From NCBI GenBank assembly GCA_001872625.1, contig MNXP01000029.1:19109-83108 (forward strand): 64,000 nucleotides of DNA. The letters run 5' to 3'. A program made the position numbers and the translations under genes. Source of the stretch: Bacteroidetes bacterium CG2_30_33_31. Lineage in GTDB: Bacteria; Bacteroidota; Bacteroidia; Bacteroidales; UBA1556. Under the pieces are notes generated by a model that was not told where the DNA came from, did not search any database, and saw only the letters and a list, made by a program, of their open reading frames with translations. Below, piece after piece: positions 2,817 through 63,024 of this stretch. Each line of letters starts with the position of its first letter. Positions within the stretch are counted from its first letter, which is position 1.

Positions 2817-5165
2817 ATGAAAAAATCTATAATATTTTTATTGATAATATTTTTTCAAATAAATATTTATGCTCAACATACTATTTCGGGTTATGTGCAT
2901 GAAAGCGGAAGCGGAGAGCTTCTTTTGGGAGTAAATATTTATTTGAAAGGCACTCAAATAGGAACAGTAAGCAACAATTACGGATTTTATTCTTTGACTT
3001 TGCCTACTGGCGAAGCTGAAGTTGTTTACTCTTATGTAGGTTATACTGTTTTAACAAAAAAGATTGATTTACAGAAAGATATAAATATAAATGTAGAATT
3101 GGAATCAAGTCTTGAGCTAAGAGGAATTGAAGTTGTTGCCGAAAAATCGGAAAGAATAAGCGATGAAGTTAGAATGAGCGTTGTCAAAGTTCCAATAAAA
3201 CAAGTTACCGAAATTCCAGCGCTTTTGGGCGAGAGAGATGTTTTCAAAGTACTACAACTTATGCCAGGAGTAAGATCTGGTGGTGAAGGAAATTCAGGAT
3301 TATATGTTCGTGGCGGTGGTCCCGATCAAAACCTAATAATTCTTGATGATGCCCCGGTTTATAATGCTTATCATTTGTTTGGATTTTTCTCGGTTTTCAA
3401 TGGCGATGCGCTAAAAAGTGTGGAGCTTGTTAAGGGCGGTTTCCCTGCCAGATACGGAGGAAGACTTTCATCGGTTTTAGATATTAATATGAAAGATGGT
3501 AATAATCAAGAGTTTGGCGGAGAGGGCAGCATTGGAATTATTTCCTCACGATTGATGTTAGAAGGCCCTCTTAAAAAGAAAAAATCCTCTTTTATCATTT
3601 CTGGCAGACGAACTTATATTGACGCACTATTAAGACCAATAATTAAAGCTGCACAAAATGGCGATTATTTTGGCTACTATTTTTATGACCTTAATGCCAA
3701 AGTTAATTATGAGATTAATGAAAAAAACCACCTATATCTTAGCACTTATTCGGGGAAAGATAAATTTTATGCTGGTTATTCAGATAGAAACATATCCGAA
3801 GAATTTGGCTTAGACTGGCAAAATATTACAGCTACAGCCCGCTGGAATCATCTTTACAATAATAAGCTTTTTGCAAATACTTCATTGATATACAGCAGAT
3901 ACAGATTTAAAGTTGGCGTTGGTTATAAAGATAAAACTTCAGGAGATAATTATAATTTAGCTTATTACTCTGGTATAGAAGATTTTGGATTAAAACATGA
4001 TTTTACTTATGTGCCCAACTCCAAACATTTTGTTAGGTTCGGTGCCAATATTACACATCATCTTTTTACACCAAGCGCCATTGTTATAAAAGGTAGCGGA
4101 TTACCAACAGATTTAGAGTCTCATGCAAAAAAAATAAATAGTTTAGAATCAGCCGTTTATATAGAAGATGAAATTAAGCTCAACGACAAATCAAAATTAA
4201 ATGCTGGCTTACGATTAAGCGATTTTGGTGTAGAAAAGAGAAATTATTTTGGATTAGAGCCACGCATATTATATTCATATATGATAAACGAAAACTTATC
4301 TTTCAAAGCAGCCTATACCTATATGAATCAATATATTCATCTATTATCCACCACAGGAATAAGTTTGCCAATAGATTTATGGGTGCCGGCAACAAATATT
4401 GTAGGTCCCAAAAAGTCGCATCAAGGAGTTATTGGGTTAGCTAAGGATTTCAACAAACCCGCATTTTCTATTTCGTTGGAAGCGTATTATAAAACTATGG
4501 ATAATATAATTGCCTATAAAGACGGTGCAAGCTTTTTGTCGATTAGTAGTTTCGACCAAAATACAGAGTTTAACTATGAAGATGCCGTAACTGTTGGCAA
4601 CGGAAAATCTTATGGTGCAGAATTATTAGTTCAGCGCAAATTTGGTAAACTTACAGGTTGGGTGGGATATACTCTTAGCTGGACAAAATATAAATTCGCC
4701 GATATTAATTTTGGCAAAGAATTTTATGCACGTCACGACCGCCGGAATGATGTTTCGGTAGTGGTAATTTATAATCCTGGCGAAAAAATTACCTTTAGTG
4801 GAACATGGGTTTATGGCTCTGGTGATGCAATTACTCTACAAAGAGCATCTTATTCTGGCATTACTCATGATATTTTTGGCACAGGAACGTATACAAATTC
4901 AGTATATGATTATGGTGATAAAAATGATTTCAGAATGGCACCATATCATCGTCTCGATTTAGGCGTGCAATTTCATAAAACTTTAAAATGGGGAGGCCTC
5001 AGAACTATTGAAGTTTCTGTTTATAATGCTTATAATAGAGCAAATCCATTTTTCTATTATATCGGCGAAGATTACAACCAAACTACTCAAACTTCAAAAA
5101 CTGTACTGAAGCAAGTATCATTATTTCCATTTATTCCTAGTATTTCCTATTATCTAAAATTTTAA
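2817..5165 (+). CDS. TonB-dependent outer-membrane receptor with an N-terminal carboxypeptidase-regulatory-like domain
   Basis: Signal peptide, then ISGYV..ESGE.L.GVNIY (CarboxypepD_reg-like). Plug motifs are present (DVFKVLQLMPGV, GLYVRGGGPDQNLIILDDAPVYN). A long beta-barrel ends in an aromatic residue (YYLKF). Confidence 0.85.
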   Translation: MKKSIIFLLIIFFQINIYAQHTISGYVHESGSGELLLGVNIYLKGTQIGTVSNNYGFYSLTLPTGEAEVVYSYVGYTVLTKKIDLQKDININVELESSLELRGIEVVAEKSERISDEVRMSVVKVPIKQVTEIPALLGERDVFKVLQLMPGVRSGGEGNSGLYVRGGGPDQNLIILDDAPVYNAYHLFGFFSVFNGDALKSVELVKGGFPARYGGRLSSVLDINMKDGNNQEFGGEGSIGIISSRLMLEGPLKKKKSSFIISGRRTYIDALLRPIIKAAQNGDYFGYYFYDLNAKVNYEINEKNHLYLSTYSGKDKFYAGYSDRNISEEFGLDWQNITATARWNHLYNNKLFANTSLIYSRYRFKVGVGYKDKTSGDNYNLAYYSGIEDFGLKHDFTYVPNSKHFVRFGANITHHLFTPSAIVIKGSGLPTDLESHAKKINSLESAVYIEDEIKLNDKSKLNAGLRLSDFGVEKRNYFGLEPRILYSYMINENLSFKAAYTYMNQYIHLLSTTGISLPIDLWVPATNIVGPKKSHQGVIGLAKDFNKPAFSISLEAYYKTMDNIIAYKDGASFLSISSFDQNTEFNYEDAVTVGNGKSYGAELLVQRKFGKLTGWVGYTLSWTKYKFADINFGKEFYARHDRRNDVSVVVIYNPGEKITFSGTWVYGSGDAITLQRASYSGITHDIFGTGTYTNSVYDYGDKNDFRMAPYHRLDLGVQFHKTLKWGGLRTIEVSVYNAYNRANPFFYYIGEDYNQTTQTSKTVLKQVSLFPFIPSISYYLKF

Positions 5166-5170
5166 TTCTC

Positions 5171-6019
5171 ATGAAAAAAATATTATCCTTAATTTCAATT
5201 TTTACAATTTTTCTTGTTTCTTGCGAGAAAACTGTAAATAATGTCAATGTTCCTAATAATACACCAAAGCTTGTTTGCCAAGCCTTTATTAGTCCAAATG
5301 AATCAATACTGAAGCTCTATTTAACTTGGTCAAAACCGCTGTTTGGCAATTCATCTACTTTTGGATTTACACCCGAGAAAAATGCAAAAGTGGTGATTTC
5401 TAATAATAACAAACAAACACAATTGGTTTATTATGAAGATGTTAACAAGCAAATATTTTACTATTGGACAAACACATCAAGTTTGGATATAAAGCCCAAT
5501 GATGAGTTGAAACTTGAAGTTACAGCTGCAAATGGAGATGTGATAAGCTCGCAAACTATTGTTCCAGAAATGGCAAAGTTTACTTTAAAAATAGAATTAA
5601 TTGATTCCGTAGCAGATAATTGGGCATTCACGGGTTATAGCTACTCTTACACCTTAGGTATCACATCAAATAACACTTATGGTGATAGTTATTATTGTAT
5701 TGCTGCTCTTGGTTACGTTTCAATTAATGGACTTGATAGCAATGTTATATTTGAGAAAAACAATTATGGAAACGCTTATTATAAATTTGCTCCAGGAGAA
5801 ACTAAAATAATAACGCTTACTAATTATATTCCTGTCGATTCTATTAAGCTTTATGTGTTGAACACTGATGCGCCTTACTATTTTTATCATAAGTCGGTAA
5901 ATAATTTTAGCGGAGATAATCCTTTTGCAGAGCCTGTAATTATTTATTCGAATATAAAAAATGGCTTGGGTGTATTTTCTTCATACAATAAAACTCAGAA
6001 AGTAATAAAACTTAAATAA
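5171..6019 (+). CDS. DUF4249-like lipoprotein, the usual partner of this receptor class
   Basis: Starts 5 nt after the receptor stop. Lipoprotein signal (IFLVSCEK). The size and the position directly downstream of a CarboxypepD_reg-TBDR fit the Bacteroidota DUF4249 pairing. The family name is from memory. Confidence 0.55.
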   Translation: MKKILSLISIFTIFLVSCEKTVNNVNVPNNTPKLVCQAFISPNESILKLYLTWSKPLFGNSSTFGFTPEKNAKVVISNNNKQTQLVYYEDVNKQIFYYWTNTSSLDIKPNDELKLEVTAANGDVISSQTIVPEMAKFTLKIELIDSVADNWAFTGYSYSYTLGITSNNTYGDSYYCIAALGYVSINGLDSNVIFEKNNYGNAYYKFAPGETKIITLTNYIPVDSIKLYVLNTDAPYYFYHKSVNNFSGDNPFAEPVIIYSNIKNGLGVFSSYNKTQKVIKLK

Positions 6020-6090: not shown

Positions 6091-7581
6091 TTAACTAAAT
6101 GGCATTATCAATCCTATACTGAAAGGATAAAGCTCTGGACCTTTGCCAGCACGAAACATCTGCACCAAAGAATAATTGGCATACAAATTTAATGGACCCC
6201 AGCCGATTCTGGCTGTTGCATCTAAACTAAAAGGTTGAAGATAAAAATCATCAAAAACTTTAGGTTTGTTTTTTCCAGATCCATCGGAGTAGTAAAGTTG
6301 TTTTGTATGTGAAGAAAGTCGCACTCCGCCAATTACACCAGCACCCACATGAAAACTATTTGAATTATGTTTTGAGTTTGTTTGAAATTCAAATATCAAA
6401 GGTACAACAAGATACAAGGATGTCAATTTGCTTTTGGTGTATGTTCTACCCGCAGTTAAATCATAAATGCCATTAATGGTTGCCGAATCAGAATTAAGAA
6501 TAGTATTTTTTGAATTAAATTGATAGTTATTCCACTTAAGTCCCATTCCAGTAACTAATCCGAATTTATTTCCAATTAGGTTCACACTCTGTTGGAAGAA
6601 ATTGAAATTGAAGTTGGTAGATTTTGGGTAATTAAGTTCAAGAAACTGGTATCCTGTGGGCATATTTAAGTCAAAATTTCTTGTTGCGAAACCATTTATT
6701 CCTAACTCCAAGCCACTCCAATTGCCACTAAATTTTTGTTTTTGTTTTGCTTTGGTGGGTTCAATTTTTCTTTTTAGAACTCTTGTATTTTCGCCATCTT
6801 CAATAACTATAAGCTCGTTATTATTGAATTTTATTTTTACTGTATCCTTGCCATTTTCAACCGAAAAATCTTTACCATCAGCATCAATCCAGGTTGTTTG
6901 AACTTCCGAGGTGGCTGTACCATCAGCATCAATTTCCTTATGGGCTGGCTCTTTTGAGAATTTTATTGAGCTTGCTCCGCTAATGCTTGCCACAATAGTT
7001 GAGTCAGTATTCAGTTGAGCATCACTTGCCCCGCTGGCATTTATTTTGGCATAAGTGTTATTAAGTTCAAATGCTTTCAAATCGCTTGCCCCAGAAATAT
7101 TTGCAATAAGAGAATCAACTTTTCCAACAAGAGTAATATCACTCGCTCCGCTTGATTTTATTTTTGCCAAGTTATAATTAAGATTCAATTGAATATCCGA
7201 TGCACCCGAATTTTCTATGAAAATAATTTTGCCCGATAAAATATCCTTGTTGGTAATGTCGGATGCTCCATTTGCTGTGAGTGAGTTAAATTCGTGAGCA
7301 AAAACAAAAAGTACTGCATCTTCATCAATTCTGCCGTTATTGCTAATAAAAAGCACATTATTTTTAACATACATTTTTAGCTTTGTAATATCAGCAGATG
7401 ATGGAATTAGGCGTACATAATTTGAATCGCTTTGAATTAGAAGAATTTTGACTCCTGCGGAAGTTTTTACGCCAGAAAAGTTTTCTTCGAAGTTTATTTC
7501 GTTTGACTGAGAAAAAACACTGGAGTTTTCGAAGAGCAAGAAAATTAAAAATCCTGCTACAACTAACTTTAATTTATTCAT
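6091..7581 (-). CDS. Secreted protein: DUF2807-like (adhesin head GIN type) repeat domain fused to a C-terminal outer-membrane beta-barrel
   Basis: Signal peptide. Six to seven SGASD(I/L/A) repeats occur every ~19-22 aa. The C-terminal ~210 aa show alternating aromatic/Gly beta-strand patterning (GAGVIGGVRLS, ARIGWGPLNLYANYSL). Confidence 0.55.
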   Translation of the reverse strand: MNKLKLVVAGFLIFLLFENSSVFSQSNEINFEENFSGVKTSAGVKILLIQSDSNYVRLIPSSADITKLKMYVKNNVLFISNNGRIDEDAVLFVFAHEFNSLTANGASDITNKDILSGKIIFIENSGASDIQLNLNYNLAKIKSSGASDITLVGKVDSLIANISGASDLKAFELNNTYAKINASGASDAQLNTDSTIVASISGASSIKFSKEPAHKEIDADGTATSEVQTTWIDADGKDFSVENGKDTVKIKFNNNELIVIEDGENTRVLKRKIEPTKAKQKQKFSGNWSGLELGINGFATRNFDLNMPTGYQFLELNYPKSTNFNFNFFQQSVNLIGNKFGLVTGMGLKWNNYQFNSKNTILNSDSATINGIYDLTAGRTYTKSKLTSLYLVVPLIFEFQTNSKHNSNSFHVGAGVIGGVRLSSHTKQLYYSDGSGKNKPKVFDDFYLQPFSLDATARIGWGPLNLYANYSLVQMFRAGKGPELYPFSIGLIMPFS

Positions 7582-7661
7582 AATTTAACATTTAAAAATT
7601 TATTGATATGGCTCTATGACGCGGTCTTATATTTTTATGTTACAAAAGAAAGGTTTTAAAA

Positions 7662-7973
7662 AGATTGGTTGGAGATTGAAGAAAAGATTGGTTGGAAGAA
7701 GATTGATGAAAGATTGGTTGGAGATTGATGAAAAGATTGGTTGGAGATTGATGAAAAGATTGGTTGGAGATTGATGAAAGATTGGTTGGAGATTGAAGAA
7801 AAGATTGGTTGGAGATTGAAGAAAAGATTGGTTGGGAAAGATTAATGAAAGATTGGTTGGAGATTGATGAAAGATTGGTTGAAAAAGATTGATGAAAGAT
7901 TGGTTGAAGATTGATGAAAGATTGGATGAAGATTGAAAAAAAGATTGGATGAAGATTGAAAAAAAGATTGGTT
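7662..7973. repeat. Imperfect tandem array: 13 full units of 22-26 bp plus one partial unit, consensus AGATTGGTTGG-AGATTGATGAA(A)
   Basis: Counted by eye. There are 27 AGATT(G) cores spaced 11-12 bp apart. Unit length varies, so no reading frame is kept, and no ORF of 60 aa or more crosses it. The last unit overlaps the flippase stop codon at 7972-7974. Confidence 0.95.
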
Positions 7974-9450
7974 ATTCCTCAGTTTTTAAAATTGAAAAGA
8001 AGAGTCGTAAATTTAAGAGTTTTAAAACTAAGGCTACAAAGATTACTAAAATCGCCATTATTGCAAGTTGCCAATGCCATTGCACATTTATATAATTTGA
8101 AAAGAAGGCAGAAATTATTGTGAGAATTATAAATATAAAAAGTCGCATAAGGTACGAGCTTTCAAATTTTATTTTCAATAGTTTAAAGGCTAAATAAATT
8201 TGAAGCAGAGCAGTAATCCATTGAGCTGAAAGAGCCGCCCAAGCAGAACCTGGCGAGGAATATTTTGGGATTAGCCAAAAGTTTAAAACCAAAGAAATAA
8301 TTACTCCCACAAAAGCTACTTTATTTAATTTTGATAGCGAACCATTGGCAGTTAAAAGTGTTCCAAAAATGTATGTAAATGATGTGGCAATGTAGGTGAA
8401 CATTAGGATGACAAGCACTTTGGTGCTAAGTTGCGTGCGAGCTAAATATTGCGAAGCGCTTTCTTCTGCGTATGGATGATAAAGATAATTCATAATATTT
8501 TCACCATAAAAAGTAGCGGCTATGGCCATTCCAACAGAAACTATAAATAATAGAGTAAAAGGAAGTTTTATCATTTGGTTCAAATCCTTTTTTTGCTTTA
8601 TCATTTTCGAAAAAATAGGCAGTAGAAGAGCCGCAAAAAGAACTCCCGACATATTATTTGCCACGTCGAAAAGTCGAAAAGCTGAAGCGTAAATTCCAGC
8701 TTGAACGGCTCCATCAGGAAGGATACGCTCGATCAAAAAAGAATCAATGCGGCTGTACATACTCATTAAGAAGACAAGAACAGCATAAGGCCAACTCTTT
8801 TTTATCACCATGCTAAAAAATGCTGGGTTCCAATTTAATTTCAGATTTACGGTCTTGTTTATCACAATAAAAAATGCAATAAGTGCCGTAAGGCAATAAG
8901 CTAAAGTTTGCGCGTAAATAAACCACTTTATTGTAAATCTAAAGTTAGGTATGTTTCCCCATAAAAGGACGCTGCAAATAAGAATCATAAAAAGTCGGTC
9001 GAGCACCGAAAGCATACTATCAACTTTAAAAAGTAAAAGCGCCGAAATATTGCTTCGAAGGTATAAAATTAAAGCCAATAGGAATTGATTGATGCCAATA
9101 ATAAATAGAAACCAAAGTTGACGTGTTTGATAGCCAATAAGATAACCAATGCTCATAATTGTGAGCATATAAATTATGGCAAAAAGAAAACGCATGATTA
9201 TTATGGCAGAAAAATGTTTTGTAAGGAGATGTGTATTTTGGGCGATATTTCTATTGTTGAAATTGGTGATGCCCATATCAAGAAACATTTGCAAAATAAA
9301 AGTGAAGTTAAATATAGCGAAGTAAAAACCATACTCAGCAGGACCAACAACATTTTGAACCGTTCTATCAATTCCCAAAACCCAAAAAGGTTTTATCAGA
9401 AAATTGAGAGATAATAATAAAATAATATTTGTAATGAATTTTCTTCTCAT
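7972..9450 (-). CDS. Wzx-like oligosaccharide/polysaccharide flippase (MOP superfamily)
   Basis: 492 aa with roughly 12-14 hydrophobic helices. The N-terminal pattern (NIILLLSLNFLIKPFWVLGIDRTVQN) and overall layout are typical of polysaccharide biosynthesis/flippase proteins. Confidence 0.7.
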   Translation of the reverse strand: MRRKFITNIILLLSLNFLIKPFWVLGIDRTVQNVVGPAEYGFYFAIFNFTFILQMFLDMGITNFNNRNIAQNTHLLTKHFSAIIIMRFLFAIIYMLTIMSIGYLIGYQTRQLWFLFIIGINQFLLALILYLRSNISALLLFKVDSMLSVLDRLFMILICSVLLWGNIPNFRFTIKWFIYAQTLAYCLTALIAFFIVINKTVNLKLNWNPAFFSMVIKKSWPYAVLVFLMSMYSRIDSFLIERILPDGAVQAGIYASAFRLFDVANNMSGVLFAALLLPIFSKMIKQKKDLNQMIKLPFTLLFIVSVGMAIAATFYGENIMNYLYHPYAEESASQYLARTQLSTKVLVILMFTYIATSFTYIFGTLLTANGSLSKLNKVAFVGVIISLVLNFWLIPKYSSPGSAWAALSAQWITALLQIYLAFKLLKIKFESSYLMRLFIFIILTIISAFFSNYINVQWHWQLAIMAILVIFVALVLKLLNLRLFFSILKTEE

Positions 9451-61965: not shown

Positions 61966-63024
61966 TTATAGAATTTTTAGAAAATTTATTTCTTTAGCAG
62001 AAAGGTAGCGCCATTTGCCGCGAGGCAAATCCTTTTTAGTAAGGCCGCCAAAAATTACTCTATCAAGTTTAACAACTTTATATTCAAGATTTTCAAAAAT
62101 TCTTCTAACAATTCTATTTTTGCCAGAATGAATTTCGATTCCTACATTATTTTTCCCTTTATCATCGACATAAGAAGCTTTATCGGCGGAAATTTTTCCA
62201 TCTTCCAGTTCAATTCCTTCAATGATTTTAAGCAAATCTTTTTTACTCACATCTTTGTCAAGAACAACATGATAAAGCTTGCGAATATTATGTTTTGGGT
62301 GAGTGAGTTTTTTTGCCAAATCGCCATCATTAGTGAAAAGCAAAACTCCTGTGGTATTTTTATCAAGGCGTCCAATAGGATAAATTCTTTCCTTACAAGC
62401 TTTTTCTACCAGCGACATCACTGTTTTTCTTTCTTCAGGATCTTCTGTAGTTGTTATAAATCCTTTGGGTTTATTGAGCAAAACATATTGCAAATTCTCT
62501 GCTTTGAGAGTTTGTCCGTCCATAGAAACCTTGTCTTTTTGGCTCACTTTATAACCCAATTCAGTAATGGTTTTGCCATTTACAGTTATAACGCCAGTTT
62601 CGATAAGAGAATCGGCTTCGCGACGTGAACAAACGCCAGCATGAGCAATATATTTGTTGAGTCTCATGGTTCCGTCGTTGCTGAAAGTTGGTGAAACAGC
62701 GGCGGTTTCTGTTTTTTTATCGCGACCGATTTCTTTTTTAAATCCAGTTTTCACAAATTTACCTTTTTTCTTGTCGCCGATTTCGTCCTTAGAGGAAGAT
62801 TTTACAAAGGTGCTTTTTGGTTTCCCAAATTTACCTTTTCTCTCTTCTCCAATTTCACTTTTAGAAGTAGATTTTACAAATTTGCTTTTTGGTTTCACAA
62901 ATTTACCTTTAGGTTTATCTGAATTGGTTTTAGGCTTATCAGCAGATTTCTTATCTTTATAAAATTTGGTATAACTACCTGATTTTTTAGTGTCTTTCTT
63001 TTCTCCTGGAGTAGATTTGGCCAT
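61966..63024 (-). CDS. rluB: RluB/RsuA-family pseudouridine synthase with an S4 domain and a Lys-rich repeated N-terminal extension
   Basis: S4 domain MRLNKYIAHAGVCSRREADSLI. Catalytic motif GRLDKNTTGVLLFTNDG. KHNIRKLYHVV. The first ~110 aa are Lys-rich with 24-aa tandem repeats. Confidence 0.85.
   Translation of the reverse strand: MAKSTPGEKKDTKKSGSYTKFYKDKKSADKPKTNSDKPKGKFVKPKSKFVKSTSKSEIGEERKGKFGKPKSTFVKSSSKDEIGDKKKGKFVKTGFKKEIGRDKKTETAAVSPTFSNDGTMRLNKYIAHAGVCSRREADSLIETGVITVNGKTITELGYKVSQKDKVSMDGQTLKAENLQYVLLNKPKGFITTTEDPEERKTVMSLVEKACKERIYPIGRLDKNTTGVLLFTNDGDLAKKLTHPKHNIRKLYHVVLDKDVSKKDLLKIIEGIELEDGKISADKASYVDDKGKNNVGIEIHSGKNRIVRRIFENLEYKVVKLDRVIFGGLTKKDLPRGKWRYLSAKEINFLKIL
62713..62910 (-). 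repeat. Intragenic 72-bp (24-aa) tandem repeat, about 2.75 copies, in the N-terminal extension of the pseudouridine synthase
   Basis: KGKFVKPKSKFVKSTSKSEIGEER / KGKFGKPKSTFVKSSSKDEIGDKK / KGKFVKTGFKKEIGRDKK. AAATTTACCTTT recurs on the plus strand at about 72-nt spacing. Confidence 0.85.

Follow-up and report, generated by a model that had tools for sequence, protein, structure and literature searches.

The flippase-DUF2807 junction

The window, a 64-kb stretch (64,000 nucleotides) of contig MNXP01000029.1 from the Bacteroidetes MAG CG2_30_33_31, carries a tandem array of AGATTG repeats between two genes encoded on the minus strand. The features of this junction are listed below; neither gene belongs to the repeat element.

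6091..7581, minus strand: DUF2807 (GIN-domain, putative adhesin-like) gene, 496 aa, AUJ98_03500; downstream neighbor
7618..7644, minus strand: ECF-sigma-like promoter motif TGTAAC-N17-CGTC, 36-63 nt upstream of the DUF2807 ATG
7645..7661, minus strand: unique 17-bp spacer, TTTTAAAACCTTTCTTT on the minus strand, from the last repeat core to the -35-like element
7662..7973, plus strand: AGATTG minisatellite, 13 units of 22-26 bp and a partial unit, with 27 AGATT cores
7965..7975, plus strand: last unit, partial and degenerate, AGATTGGTTAT, holding the flippase stop codon
7972..9450, minus strand: Wzx-like polysaccharide flippase (Polysacc_synt, PF01943) gene, OIP01672.1/AUJ98_03505; upstream neighbor

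The array begins right at the end of the flippase coding sequence, where it overlaps the stop codon at 7972-7974 (TTA on the plus strand, TAA on the minus strand), and it fills the gap up to 80 bp from the DUF2807 ATG at 7581. These coordinates agree with those of an earlier sequence-only reading of the window. The flippase gene has not been truncated by the array: its product is 492 aa long in the window as it is among orthologues. Homologues of the DUF2807 protein additionally carry an OMP_b-brl_2 match. The locus is a chromosomal setting common to relatives, in which the flippase and DUF2807 genes are also adjacent.

The TGTAAC-N17-CGTC motif was found only once in the window by motif search, and it is kept upstream of array-less DUF2807 orthologues (55-66% identity). 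Since the distance from motif to ATG differs among the orthologues, a MAFFT alignment of the upstream regions was uninformative, and conservation of the promoter was assessed by motif search in its place. We treat the motif as a predicted promoter. The array would then occupy roughly -45 to -360 relative to it and lie clear of the spacer between -35 and -10. A scan for sigma-70-type promoters gave nothing above shuffled expectation, and no intrinsic terminator was predicted between 7300 and 8300.

Structure of the array

Direct parsing confirmed the earlier count of 13 units plus a partial unit (AGATTGGTT), with 27 cores for the most part 11-12 bp apart. The unit consensus is AGATTGGTTGG-AGATTGATGAA(A), AGATTG is intact in 26 of the 27 AGATT cores, and successive cores are spaced by 11 bp (15 cases), 12 bp (8), 14 bp (2), or 15 bp (1). 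Tandem Repeats Finder reported a single array at 7659-7973, with a period of 23, 13.5 copies, 88% matches, and a score of 400, and it detected a further periodicity of higher order at 140 bp (2.3 copies, score 514). C is absent from the plus strand across the 312 bp (A 122, G 102, T 88). Both neighboring genes have the minus strand as their sense strand; it is correspondingly G-free and reads (CAATCT-N5-6)n.

Allowing up to 3 mismatches, the 22-mer consensus matched eight times, always within the array, where shuffles predict 0 matches. Outside the array, AGATTG is not enriched in the 64-kb window (13 plus-strand and 19 minus-strand copies), and repeat and consensus searches revealed no second array resembling it anywhere in the window, as the sequence-only reading had stated. 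There is also no CAATCT array on the plus strand of the window. No open reading frame of at least 60 aa crosses the array in the list of open reading frames, again as read earlier. A coding array was rejected: on the plus strand, nearly every unit holds a TGA, and the minus strand lacks G and thus a start codon; the 52-aa open reading frame annotated by some pipelines is a translation of the repeat. An Rfam covariance-model scan of the whole window gave 0 matches at the gathering score, and neither strand of the array folded better than shuffled sequence. A thrombin-aptamer-like G-quadruplex (GGTTGG...GGTTGG) was judged too weak, with window loops of ~17 nt and two tetrads only.

Related arrays elsewhere in the genome

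The sequence-only reading had suggested that the array could be a device for its own locus, and had named a generic satellite dispersed genome-wide as the finding that would speak against this. Such dispersal is what we observed. At least 10 further arrays of the same units lie at at least eight other intergenic sites of the MAG, next to genes for a tricorn-like protease, a histidine kinase, a T9SS cargo protein, an MFS transporter, a CAAX protease, ribH, and LexA-like plus Y-family polymerase genes, which are unrelated to one another. The array-flanking proteins at loci L116, L123, L032, L068/L141, and L142 correspond exactly to NCBI proteins of the source MAG (OIP02211, OIP01628/01629, OIO99956, OIP01941, and OIP00709), to which the OIP01672 of the window also belongs. 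The sister arrays span 134-830 bp with 11-63 cores, and they occur in both orientations relative to transcription. Two arrays stand head to head in L068, so that no single polarity exists and a replication-strand bias was rejected.

Units of the sister arrays follow the pattern of the window, AGATTG[GA]TTG[GA] plus 0-4 A, and AGATTGATGAA or AAGAAA. The exact 23-mers AGATTGGTTGGAGATTGAAGAAA and AAGATTGGTTGGAGATTGAAGAA are common to the window array and L141, L142, L146, and L148. In the comparison with the rest of the genome and with relatives that the sequence-only reading had suggested, exact 23-mers thus recurred at other loci of the MAG, and the orthologous loci of relatives had no array. 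Core spacing in the sister arrays and in the gene-flanking arrays described below is 9, 10, 11, 12, 14, or 15 bp. A hairpin module of ~75 bp is found in the L064/L123 and L116 arrays only, and is absent from the window and all other loci. With many sites in one genome and none at the orthologous sites of relatives, the arrays form a dispersed intergenic tandem-repeat family. A strict search for the unit in 185,579 representative genomes, among which the source MAG is evidently not included, returned two isolated single matches, one inside a coding region (L001) and one at a contig end (L002), indicating that the exact di-unit is not a common satellite.

Linkage of the repeat family to IVP genes

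In the source MAG, AGATTG arrays bracket a small, apparently mobile 23S_rRNA_IVP gene of 122 aa, whose product is a four-helix-bundle, Avd-like protein. The cassette is 100% identical at the nucleotide level over 585-815 bp in three genomic contexts of the MAG, with the IVP gene sitting between two direct G-arrays. At L068:3177-3545, the gene product matches PF05635 (E = 1.7e-12) and arrays lie on both sides; L146 is an IVP context with no upstream array. IVP orthologues 57-68% identical in L026, L076, L095, L100, and L129 are flanked by arrays as well.

We also examined five IVP homologues picked solely on protein similarity, with no DNA pattern used, from Draconibacterium mangrovi, Maribellus sediminis, a Chlorobi MAG, and two long metagenomic contigs. 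All five had (AGATTG-N3-5)n upstream and CAATCT downstream. In the 200 bp upstream of the gene, AGATTG was the commonest 6-mer for three homologues and the second or third commonest for the other two, with 3-17 copies there versus 1-5 in the remaining 5.7-7.7 kb; CAATCT was present downstream in 3-5 copies for four of the homologues and in a single copy for L140. A second, 2RLD-like IVP subfamily instead has inverted arrays of AATTGAC/AATTGTC heptamers on its flanks. In every case examined, the repeat motif switched with the IVP subfamily, and in most it was inverted on the two sides of the gene. Folding of the L138 cassette paired the upstream and downstream arrays around the open reading frame (z = -4.25). 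Host transcription units carry the IVP gene as a sense insertion, including cas4-IVP-cas1, cas1-IVP-cas2, and an ara operon.

The units of the window array are identical to those flanking the PF05635 gene in the same genome, and its link to the cassette rests on this sequence kinship and the shared genome. A tblastn search with four IVP proteins found no IVP gene or remnant in the 64-kb window, and the array has neither an adjacent PF05635 gene nor an inverted partner array. As both the IVP gene and a plus-strand CAATCT array are missing from the window, the window array is a solo copy.

Avd acts with nucleic acid in diversity-generating retroelements, and we know of no role outside these retroelements for the PF05635 proteins, which are abundant in Bacteroidota. 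PF05635 proteins are homologues of Avd (PMC10053308) and have been listed as associated with CRISPR adaptation modules (PMC10910872). No description of a repeat-bracketed IVP cassette was found in the searchable literature, and literature searches with the unit sequence returned chance primer matches or nothing.

Copy number and presence in relatives

The array was identical base for base in two independent assemblies (L003 and L004), and the adjacency of its neighbors recurs in relatives; an assembly artefact, one of the outcomes that would have undone the earlier account, is thereby contradicted, with the exact copy number less certain. A further assembly (L005) has a 100-N gap within the array. 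The contig ends in the array in 7 of 10 contigs, and the frequent shortness of cassette-bearing contigs is explained by the repeat and cassette pattern. Another assembly (L010) has 28 cores, in an internal order that differs from that of the 27 in the window, three loci vary in core number from one assembly to another, and sister arrays in the same genome have 25 versus 49 cores and 63, 41, 35, and 17 cores; these are all comparisons of short-read metagenome assemblies, which may collapse, expand, or mis-join repeats, and strains may differ by sample. The copy number of the array in the assembly should be treated as approximate. The orthologous flippase-DUF2807 loci of relatives are without the array, which is thus lineage-restricted at this locus.

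The earlier proposal of slippage or unequal exchange with a variable copy number was upheld by the 27 versus 28 cores, with a rearranged interior, and by the differences among sister arrays. This polymorphism, as seen in short-read assemblies, is also what a phase-variable contingency repeat would display. A repeat of that kind would sit within an open reading frame or between -35 and -10, its copy number altering the frame or the promoter spacing; the array is instead intergenic and wholly upstream of the predicted -35.

Origin of the window array

We interpret the window array as an orphan, or "solo," member of a genome-wide, IVP-linked AGATTG family with no dedicated role for the DUF2807 gene, and assign this reading a probability of roughly 0.6. 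The observations that carry it are the dispersal, the shared 23-mers, the link between family and IVP gene, the differing core counts, and the absence of the array from orthologous loci. Arrays with this core border the cassette in the MAG and in Bacteroidota- and Chlorobi-labelled relatives, with AGATTG repeats upstream of the IVP gene and CAATCT downstream. In the source MAG, such arrays have grown to hundreds of base pairs, and gene-less arrays occupy several further intergenic gaps, the flippase-DUF2807 gap among them. Arrays probably grow, shrink, and reshuffle through replication slippage and unequal recombination, which the 140-bp higher-order period of the window array fits. Solo arrays may arise or spread through recombination among arrays; exchange between two direct G-arrays, for example, would delete the IVP gene and leave a solo array behind. 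The DUF2807 gene would have its own conserved ECF-type promoter just downstream of the array, and the array is likely to have no dedicated control role. The CA-rich repeat RNA considered in the earlier reading for minus-strand transcription fits, as the sense transcript would consist of C, A, and U only. A transcript running out of the flippase gene would pass through 312 nt of G-free, unstructured RNA with 33% C and one YC dimer per 11-12 nt, a composition expected of an efficient Rho loading site. The array therefore probably terminates transcription of the flippase gene and shields the promoter, most likely as an incidental consequence of how it is oriented at this junction.

At this locus, the outcome is a deflationary one: annotation of the array as operator, iteron, or switch of the DUF2807 gene is not advised. 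The wider pattern is that of a multi-copy cassette in one genome, whose arrays have spread to other intergenic gaps, and it yields testable hypotheses on what IVP proteins recognize and how the cassettes move.

A broader and tentative interpretation, possible though on balance improbable, is that the AGATTG arrays, and the AATTGAC arrays of a sister clade, are the cis borders of an unrecognized mobile or self-propagating cassette. The product of its only gene, an Avd-like PF05635 protein, would recognize its own arrays, as DNA or RNA, and the cassette would insert into operons, CRISPR adaptation modules included, much as an rRNA intervening sequence does; solo arrays would be non-autonomous derivatives, or landing pads that serve in array-to-array recombination. 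If true, this would provide the first functional handle on a very large protein family. For the wider pattern, Bacteroides thetaiotaomicron, with a 2RLD-type gene in an arabinose operon, is a genetically tractable test system.

Other explanations for the array

Among the alternatives, the likeliest is that the arrays are functional platforms for a genome-wide factor, most plausibly the IVP protein recognizing AGATTG on DNA or RNA, an account we find rather doubtful. The core is conserved from Bacteroidota to a Chlorobi MAG with spacers as different as AAGG, GAG, ATGAA, AGGAT, and GTTGG, and in the window AGATT is kept in 27 of 27 cores while the spacers vary, a comparison biased by the definition of units through their cores. 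The near-invariance of the core against variable spacers, also across distant taxa, hints at selection on the sequence, and across those taxa it is not explained by a purely neutral satellite, which weighs against our main interpretation. The motif moreover follows the IVP subfamily, one having AGATTG-N3-5 and the second AATTGAC, the IVP gene is the only one consistently linked to arrays, and its homology to Avd points the same way (PMC10053308). However, conservation of the core could also stem from pairing of two inverted arrays or from slippage-driven concerted evolution, and if the arrays work by forming an RNA stem around the IVP open reading frame, it is hard to see what a lone array of a single orientation would do. 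Protein loading onto the array, as suggested in the sequence-only reading, is possible, and the sole candidate to which the data point is the genome-wide linked IVP protein, not a local regulator. Platform and solo-array interpretations overlap in what they take the array to be, and differ on whether it is used.

A second alternative, which we consider quite unlikely, holds that selection retains the array for a Rho-dependent effect, as terminator or insulator, that separates the flippase gene from a DUF2807 promoter under its own regulation. A Rut site is described as unstructured RNA, rich in C and poor in G, that runs for at least 60-80 nt and has YC dimers separated by 9-13 nt (PMC6144790), and the predicted 312 nt of sense RNA have all of these features. 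The array sense strand, G-free with 33% C, shows the strongest C>G bias in the window; its C minus G fraction is 0.327, compared with 0.003 +/- 0.046 (maximum 0.192) for random 312-nt windows. It contains 90 YC dimers, including a chain of 27 with 9-13-nt linkers, and the array transcript is unstructured (minimum free energy -3 kcal/mol for 351 nt). In favor of selection, the region from 7300 to 8300 offers no predicted intrinsic terminator, and the G-free orientation recurs between two co-directional genes at L123 9171-9480. Against it, the opposite orientation, giving G-rich RNA, is found between co-directional genes at L032, L068 2301-3130, and L068 10-204, and the arrays at L116 and L123 2655-3169 lie between divergent genes, where no transcript needs an end. 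Relatives have no array at the flippase-DUF2807 junction at all, and ~80 nt suffices for a Rut site, far below 312 nt. Natural Rut sites also differ in not being exact tandem repeats, while the sister arrays here include opposite-oriented ones and ones in divergent promoter regions. As the purpose of the whole family, Rho-dependent termination was rejected on account of the mixed orientations.

OmpR/PhoB operators, iterons, and the 11-bp centromere repeats of R1 parC are head-to-tail repeats at about one helical turn, in 2-10 copies. The sequence-only reading suggested such a layout, with helically phased OmpR/PhoB- or iteron-type sites that could form a copy-number-variable, locus-specific switch or loading platform for the DUF2807 protein. 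This model was largely refuted by the dispersal of arrays to at least eight unrelated intergenic sites of the same genome, and we now regard it as very unlikely. The likeness lies in direct repeats 11-12 bp apart, close to a helical turn, just upstream of a promoter-like motif; a copy number variable between assemblies and a histidine kinase gene adjoining one sister array are further points for the switch. An OmpR/PhoB operator would keep a fixed center-to-center distance of 10-11 bp. Phasing does not appear to be conserved in the family, whose arrays show distances of 9 to 15 bp, and the 11.5 bp per core here drifts by ~1 bp per core against the 10.5-bp helical repeat. Where an operator would have few sites at the -35, the window has 27 cores, far above any known response-regulator operator, the last of which ends 17 bp upstream of TGTAAC; with the array wholly upstream of the -35, a change in copy number leaves the promoter geometry unaltered. 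An OmpR/PhoB platform is further contradicted by orthologous promoters that keep the same motif with no array. For iterons, a rep gene, an AT-rich unwinding element, and DnaA boxes on a replicon would be expected; the neighbors here are flippase and DUF2807 genes in the chromosome, neither rep nor par genes adjoin the array, and the locus shows no features of an origin or a plasmid.

It is similarly improbable that the array is a neutral, self-seeded micro- or minisatellite, a generic 11-bp repeat that expanded with no IVP connection: a pattern scan did find four AGATTG cores at 11-bp spacing at >118 metagenomic and 17 viral loci, most of them plain four-copy 11-bp repeats of arbitrary sequence on unrelated, often high-GC or eukaryote-like contigs, but the long, low-GC, C-free arrays are concentrated in the source MAG, the 23-mers are common to the window and IVP-flanking arrays, independent origin of the same di-unit at at least eight sites is very unlikely, and the IVP association in 5/5 homologues was found with no DNA pattern. 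The 17 generic 11-bp repeats on viral contigs had no IVP gene with them, and thus give no phage link.

Comparison with known repeat systems

Long simple sequence repeats, reportedly described by Mrazek et al. in 2007, are comparable dispersed intergenic tandem repeats. TAACTGA heptamer repeats occupy many intergenic sites in Beggiatoaceae, Cyanobacteria, and five Bacteroidetes (PMC4679880), and resemble the AGATTG family as tandem direct repeats in sporadic taxa with tens of copies in some Bacteroidetes. Here, in contrast, the unit is 11-15 bp with a conserved hexamer core, its orientation to start codons is inconsistent, and an IVP gene is linked, whereas PMC4679880 mentions no linked gene. 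BrickBuilt, a minisatellite in a MITE of Porphyromonas gingivalis (PMC4596501), is likewise intergenic, multi-copy, copy-number variable, and from Bacteroidota, but has no sequence similarity to our array, around which MITE-type terminal inverted repeats were not seen. The 23S rRNA intervening sequences (PMC10053308) share the PF05635 protein, inverted RNA-pairing borders, and sense insertion in transcription units; the cassettes described here lie outside rRNA, their borders are short-tandem-repeat arrays, and the window is one-sided with no IVP gene. REP/REPIN elements with their RAYT genes (PMC3116915, PMC3337134) differ in being palindromic hairpins or doublets associated with a Y1 transposase, where we see long, non-palindromic tandem arrays of a 6-bp core plus spacer, a four-helix-bundle IVP as the flanked gene, and no evident transposition chemistry; they are alike in being dispersed, intergenic, and lineage-specific, with a small gene flanked by inverted repeats and many orphans.

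Structure of the window array and its neighborhood

The array occupies the gap between two co-directional genes, with a candidate promoter between it and the downstream gene:

6091-7581, minus strand: gene for a 496-aa DUF2807 protein
7618-7644, minus strand: TGTAAC-N17-CGTC motif, occurring once in the window
7662-7973: AGATTG-core array
7972-9450, minus strand: Polysacc_synt flippase gene

Tandem Repeats Finder reported a period of 23, 13.5 copies, 88% matches, and a score of 400, and listed no other strong repeat of this type across the 64 kb. Parsing resolved the array into 13 complete units (22-26 bp each) and one partial unit, with 27 AGATT cores (26 of them AGATTG) spaced at 11 (15 times), 12 (8 times), 14 (twice), and 15 bp (once). 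At ≤3 mismatches, the consensus 22-mer had eight matches in the window, all within the array, and none in shuffled sequences. The last partial unit contains the flippase stop codon, and the DUF2807 ATG lies 80 bp beyond the array end. Every detail of the sequence-only reading that we checked by repeat finding, parsing, and ORF positions was correct; absent from it was that the 312 bp contain 122 A, 102 G, 88 T, and no C on the plus strand, leaving the sense strand of both adjacent genes wholly G-free.

The DUF2807 protein matches, without any difference, one encoded by the MAG "Bacteroidetes bacterium CG2_30_33_31", and the identical gene was found in ten further assemblies. Two contigs (L003 and L004) reproduced the array base for base, a third (L010) spanned it with 28 cores in an altered internal order and a gap of 403 bp vs 390, and a fourth (L005) had a 100-N scaffold gap within it. 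The remaining six contigs began inside the array (7 of 10 when L010 is counted). The array is real, though its exact length is only as sure as short-read assembly of a repeat. Copy number also differed elsewhere: L064 and L123, which represent one locus with flanks 97-99% identical, had 49 vs 25 cores, and the array preceding this MAG's IVP gene (described below) varied across four assemblies, with 63, 41, 35, and 17 cores. Subject to the limits of short-read assembly, the differences support the earlier proposal of slippage or unequal exchange, and a 140-bp higher-order period detected in the window array by Tandem Repeats Finder fits block duplication via unequal exchange.

Orthologous loci and a conserved predicted promoter

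At the loci of DUF2807 orthologues with 55-66% identity (L013, L014, and L016/L017), the flippase gene was still nearby and no AGATTG array was found. In the closest relatives, the array's position between flippase and DUF2807 is taken by a gene for a 566/567-aa protein with a C-terminal NTPase_1 domain (PF03266; L013 2068-3771, L014 2105-3805), and in L017 by only a 172-bp unique spacer. L013, the closest relative, also has a 146-bp tandem repeat (5510-5842; 2.3 copies, 99% identical) just downstream of its DUF2807 orthologue, without sequence kinship to the AGATTG array.

Promoters recognized by ECF sigma factors carry AAC at -35 and CGT at -10. TGTAAC-N16-17-CGTC was present upstream of the DUF2807 ATG in the window (-63) and in every orthologue examined (-86 in L013 and L014, -145 in L017), and it looks like the DUF2807 gene's own ECF-type promoter. 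This ECF-like motif suggests that DUF2807, a GIN-domain protein, is under envelope-stress-type control. The array lies wholly upstream of this conserved predicted promoter, outside the -35/-10 spacer, and is therefore a lineage-specific addition beside it.

The same units are dispersed through the MAG

A scan of metagenome contigs for AGATTG, with four cores spaced as in the window array, yielded more than 118 loci. Among the listed matches, most were simple four-copy repeats of an arbitrary 11-bp sequence, and a subset were long, low-GC, nearly C-free arrays built from the window array's units. Exact 23-mers are common to the window array and several of these sister arrays. Exact-sequence look-up assigned the array-flanking proteins OIP02211, OIP01628/01629, OIO99956, OIP01941, and OIP00709 to the window's MAG.

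Arrays with window-type units and their orientation relative to transcription
Window, 7662-7973: G-free RNA, co-directional genes
L123, 9171-9480 (310 bp): G-free RNA, co-directional genes
L032, 316 bp: G-rich RNA, co-directional genes
L068, 2301-3130 (830 bp): G-rich RNA, co-directional genes
L068, 10-204 (195 bp): G-rich RNA, co-directional genes
L116, 446 bp, 38 cores: divergent promoter region
L123, 2655-3169 (515 bp): divergent promoter region
L068, 3549-3682 (134 bp) and 3691-3958 (268 bp): abutting head to head
L064, 611 bp, 49 cores

Orientation relative to transcription is thus mixed. The neighbors of sister arrays are functionally unconnected, comprising genes for a tricorn-like S41 protease, a histidine kinase, a 1812-aa T9SS cargo protein, a ferredoxin-domain protein, an MFS transporter, a UvrD-like endonuclease, and a CAAX protease, along with LexA-like and Y-family polymerase genes, an RNase T/GIY-YIG gene, and ribH. 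The sequence-only reading suggested that the array, with its OmpR/PhoB-like or iteron-like phasing, could be a protein-loading platform or switch controlling the DUF2807 surface protein. Finding the same units at unrelated loci of the MAG, as a genome-dispersed satellite, contradicts such a locus-specific role.

Several minor features accompany these arrays. A module of ~75 bp, consisting of a hairpin (ACATTTCCAAAGT...ACTTTGGAAATGT) and then AGATTGGTT, ends two arrays at unrelated MAG loci (L064 2240-2319 and L123 9097-9176; L116 2562-2635), and was found neither in the window nor at any other fetched locus. At L032 3371-3377 and L068 2301-2308, the stop codon of the preceding ORF overlaps the first repeat unit or is provided by it; in L032, ...GAA GAT TGA terminates a UvrD_C_2 ORF, itself a fragment of a 476-aa MAG protein split in that assembly. 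The end of a contig binned as Candidatus Korarchaeum (L002 6925-6950) reads AGATTGGATGAAGATTGAAGAATTGA, a unit also present where the window array adjoins the flippase gene; the match may be due to chance, or the contig may be a mis-binned fragment broken at an AGATTG array.

AGATTG arrays are linked to an IVP gene

On L068, from the same MAG and equal to contig L141, a 122-aa ORF between arrays belongs to the 23S_rRNA_IVP family (PF05635, E = 1.7e-12), with 2RLD as the nearest solved structure (E = 2e-15). PF05635 proteins share homology with Avd (PMC10053308). Orthologues of this IVP with 57-68% identity lie between AGATTG and CAATCT arrays in L026, L076, L095, L100, and L129, contigs of other environments where the cassettes sit within cas4/cas1/cas2 modules; IVP has been listed among newly reported associates of CRISPR adaptation modules (PMC10910872). 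In two of them (L129 1612-2079, L095 3053-3505), the IVP ORFs extend into the arrays, and their low-complexity tails, such as SPQPSQSPQ... or SPKSPKSPKS, are translated repeat.

As these five loci had been found via the DNA pattern, the link was retested without it, through a protein search with the L068 IVP followed by inspection of five homologues on long contigs: Draconibacterium mangrovi (L136), Maribellus sediminis (L137), a Chlorobi MAG (L138), and two long metagenomic contigs (L139, L140), with IVP at 4001-4369 or 3001-3369. AGATTG was among the top three 6-mers in the 200 bp upstream of IVP in 5/5, and the commonest in L136, L137, and L140, with 3-17 copies there vs 1-5 in the rest of the locus (5.7-7.7 kb). 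CAATCT occurred within 120 bp downstream in 3-5 copies in 4/5, and once in L140. Spacers of the IVP-flanking arrays vary by genome (AAGG, GAG/AAGAA, ATGAA, AGGAT, GTTGG), as does the period (9-15 bp), while the AGATTG hexamer is constant. When the L138 cassette was folded as RNA, the upstream and downstream arrays paired with each other, enclosing the ORF (z = -4.25). In both D. mangrovi and M. sediminis, IVP lies between yceG and an ODP/flavodoxin gene, but its orientation relative to these neighbors is reversed from one species to the other, a difference that inversion between inverted flanking arrays would produce. Contigs of the IVP subfamily among the protein-search matches are very often <1.5 kb, as expected if flanking arrays routinely break short-read assemblies, and IVP cassettes are probably under-represented in MAGs.

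Homologues of 2RLD, which form a second IVP subfamily, were also found in a Bacteroides arabinose operon (L166-L168, 2435-2932) and between aminotransferase and DAHP synthase genes (L169-L171, 2470-2958). These are flanked by inverted arrays of 7-bp period, (AATTGAC)n upstream and its reverse complement (AATTGTC)n downstream, with copy number differing between L166 and L167. In general, then, an IVP gene is bracketed by inverted short-repeat arrays whose motif depends on the subfamily. The searchable literature yielded nothing on IVP-flanking arrays, and the unit sequences were unmatched. The window array offers a way into this IVP-repeat association, which that literature leaves undescribed.

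By its repeats' relation to the flanked gene, this family resembles REP sequences around RAYT genes (PMC3116915, PMC3337134), and by its inverted borders around a gene, rRNA intervening sequences; the differences lie in the repeat architecture and in the linked gene, which is non-enzymatic. The window array itself fits the same broad class of dispersed intergenic tandem repeats as the TAACTGA repeats (PMC4679880) and BrickBuilt (PMC4596501).

A multi-copy cassette and a possible origin of solo arrays

An identical IVP protein is encoded in three genomic contexts of the window's MAG: after a LexA-like gene (L141, L143, L145, L147), beside ribH (L142, L148), and after a 352-aa ORF (L146). The products of ribH and of the RNase T/GIY-YIG gene match MAG proteins exactly. 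Any two contexts compared are 100% identical in nucleotide sequence over 585-815 bp, flanking arrays included (L141 2928-3742 = L142 4752-5566; L141 3158-3869 = L146 1860-2571). This identity points to recent duplication or mobility, with short-read mis-joins at the repeat also possible. On L141 (215-2308), the cassette directly adjoins a divergent LexA-like (HTH_3 and Peptidase_S24) gene and a Y-family polymerase (IMS) gene, a pair that looks like an SOS-mutagenesis-type module.

The MAG's IVP gene has direct AGATTG-reading arrays on both sides, then a CAATCT-reading array. If the two direct arrays recombined, the IVP gene would be lost and a single array would stay behind. Solo LTRs provide the analogy from which we infer that solo arrays may have arisen in this way. 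No IVP homologue or remnant was found in the window.

Probable local effects of the window array

The window array has neither an IVP gene nor an inverted partner array, matched no Rfam family, and on neither strand outdid shuffled sequence in folding (minus, -3 kcal/mol over 351 nt; plus, z = -0.71). Together with its position outside the -35/-10 spacer, these results leave no basis for a dedicated regulatory role; as a DUF2807 regulator, the array is an ordinary finding whose proposed mechanism is unsupported. Compared overall with an OmpR/PhoB operator, an iteron set, a contingency repeat, a REP element, and a structured RNA, it fitted none of them.

No intrinsic terminator was predicted near the array. 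Sense RNA beyond the flippase would run through 312 nt with no G and 33% C, giving a C minus G fraction of 0.327 vs 0.003 ± 0.046 in random windows, and 90 YC dimers, 27 of which form a chain with linkers of 9-13 nt. Features of this kind serve to define Rho loading sites (PMC6144790), and such a site in the flippase read-through RNA would be a likely consequence of the array's orientation. As sister arrays lie in the opposite orientation, any Rho effect would be incidental and local rather than the family's raison d'être.

One other repeat was noted in the window, a 72-bp tandem repeat (62749-62910; 2.2 copies, 83% matches) within the lysine-rich N-terminal tail of a 352-aa ORF (61966-63024, minus strand). 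We take the C-terminal part of this ORF, by sequence reading alone, to resemble a pseudouridine synthase, and the repeat appears to be an ordinary coding repeat.
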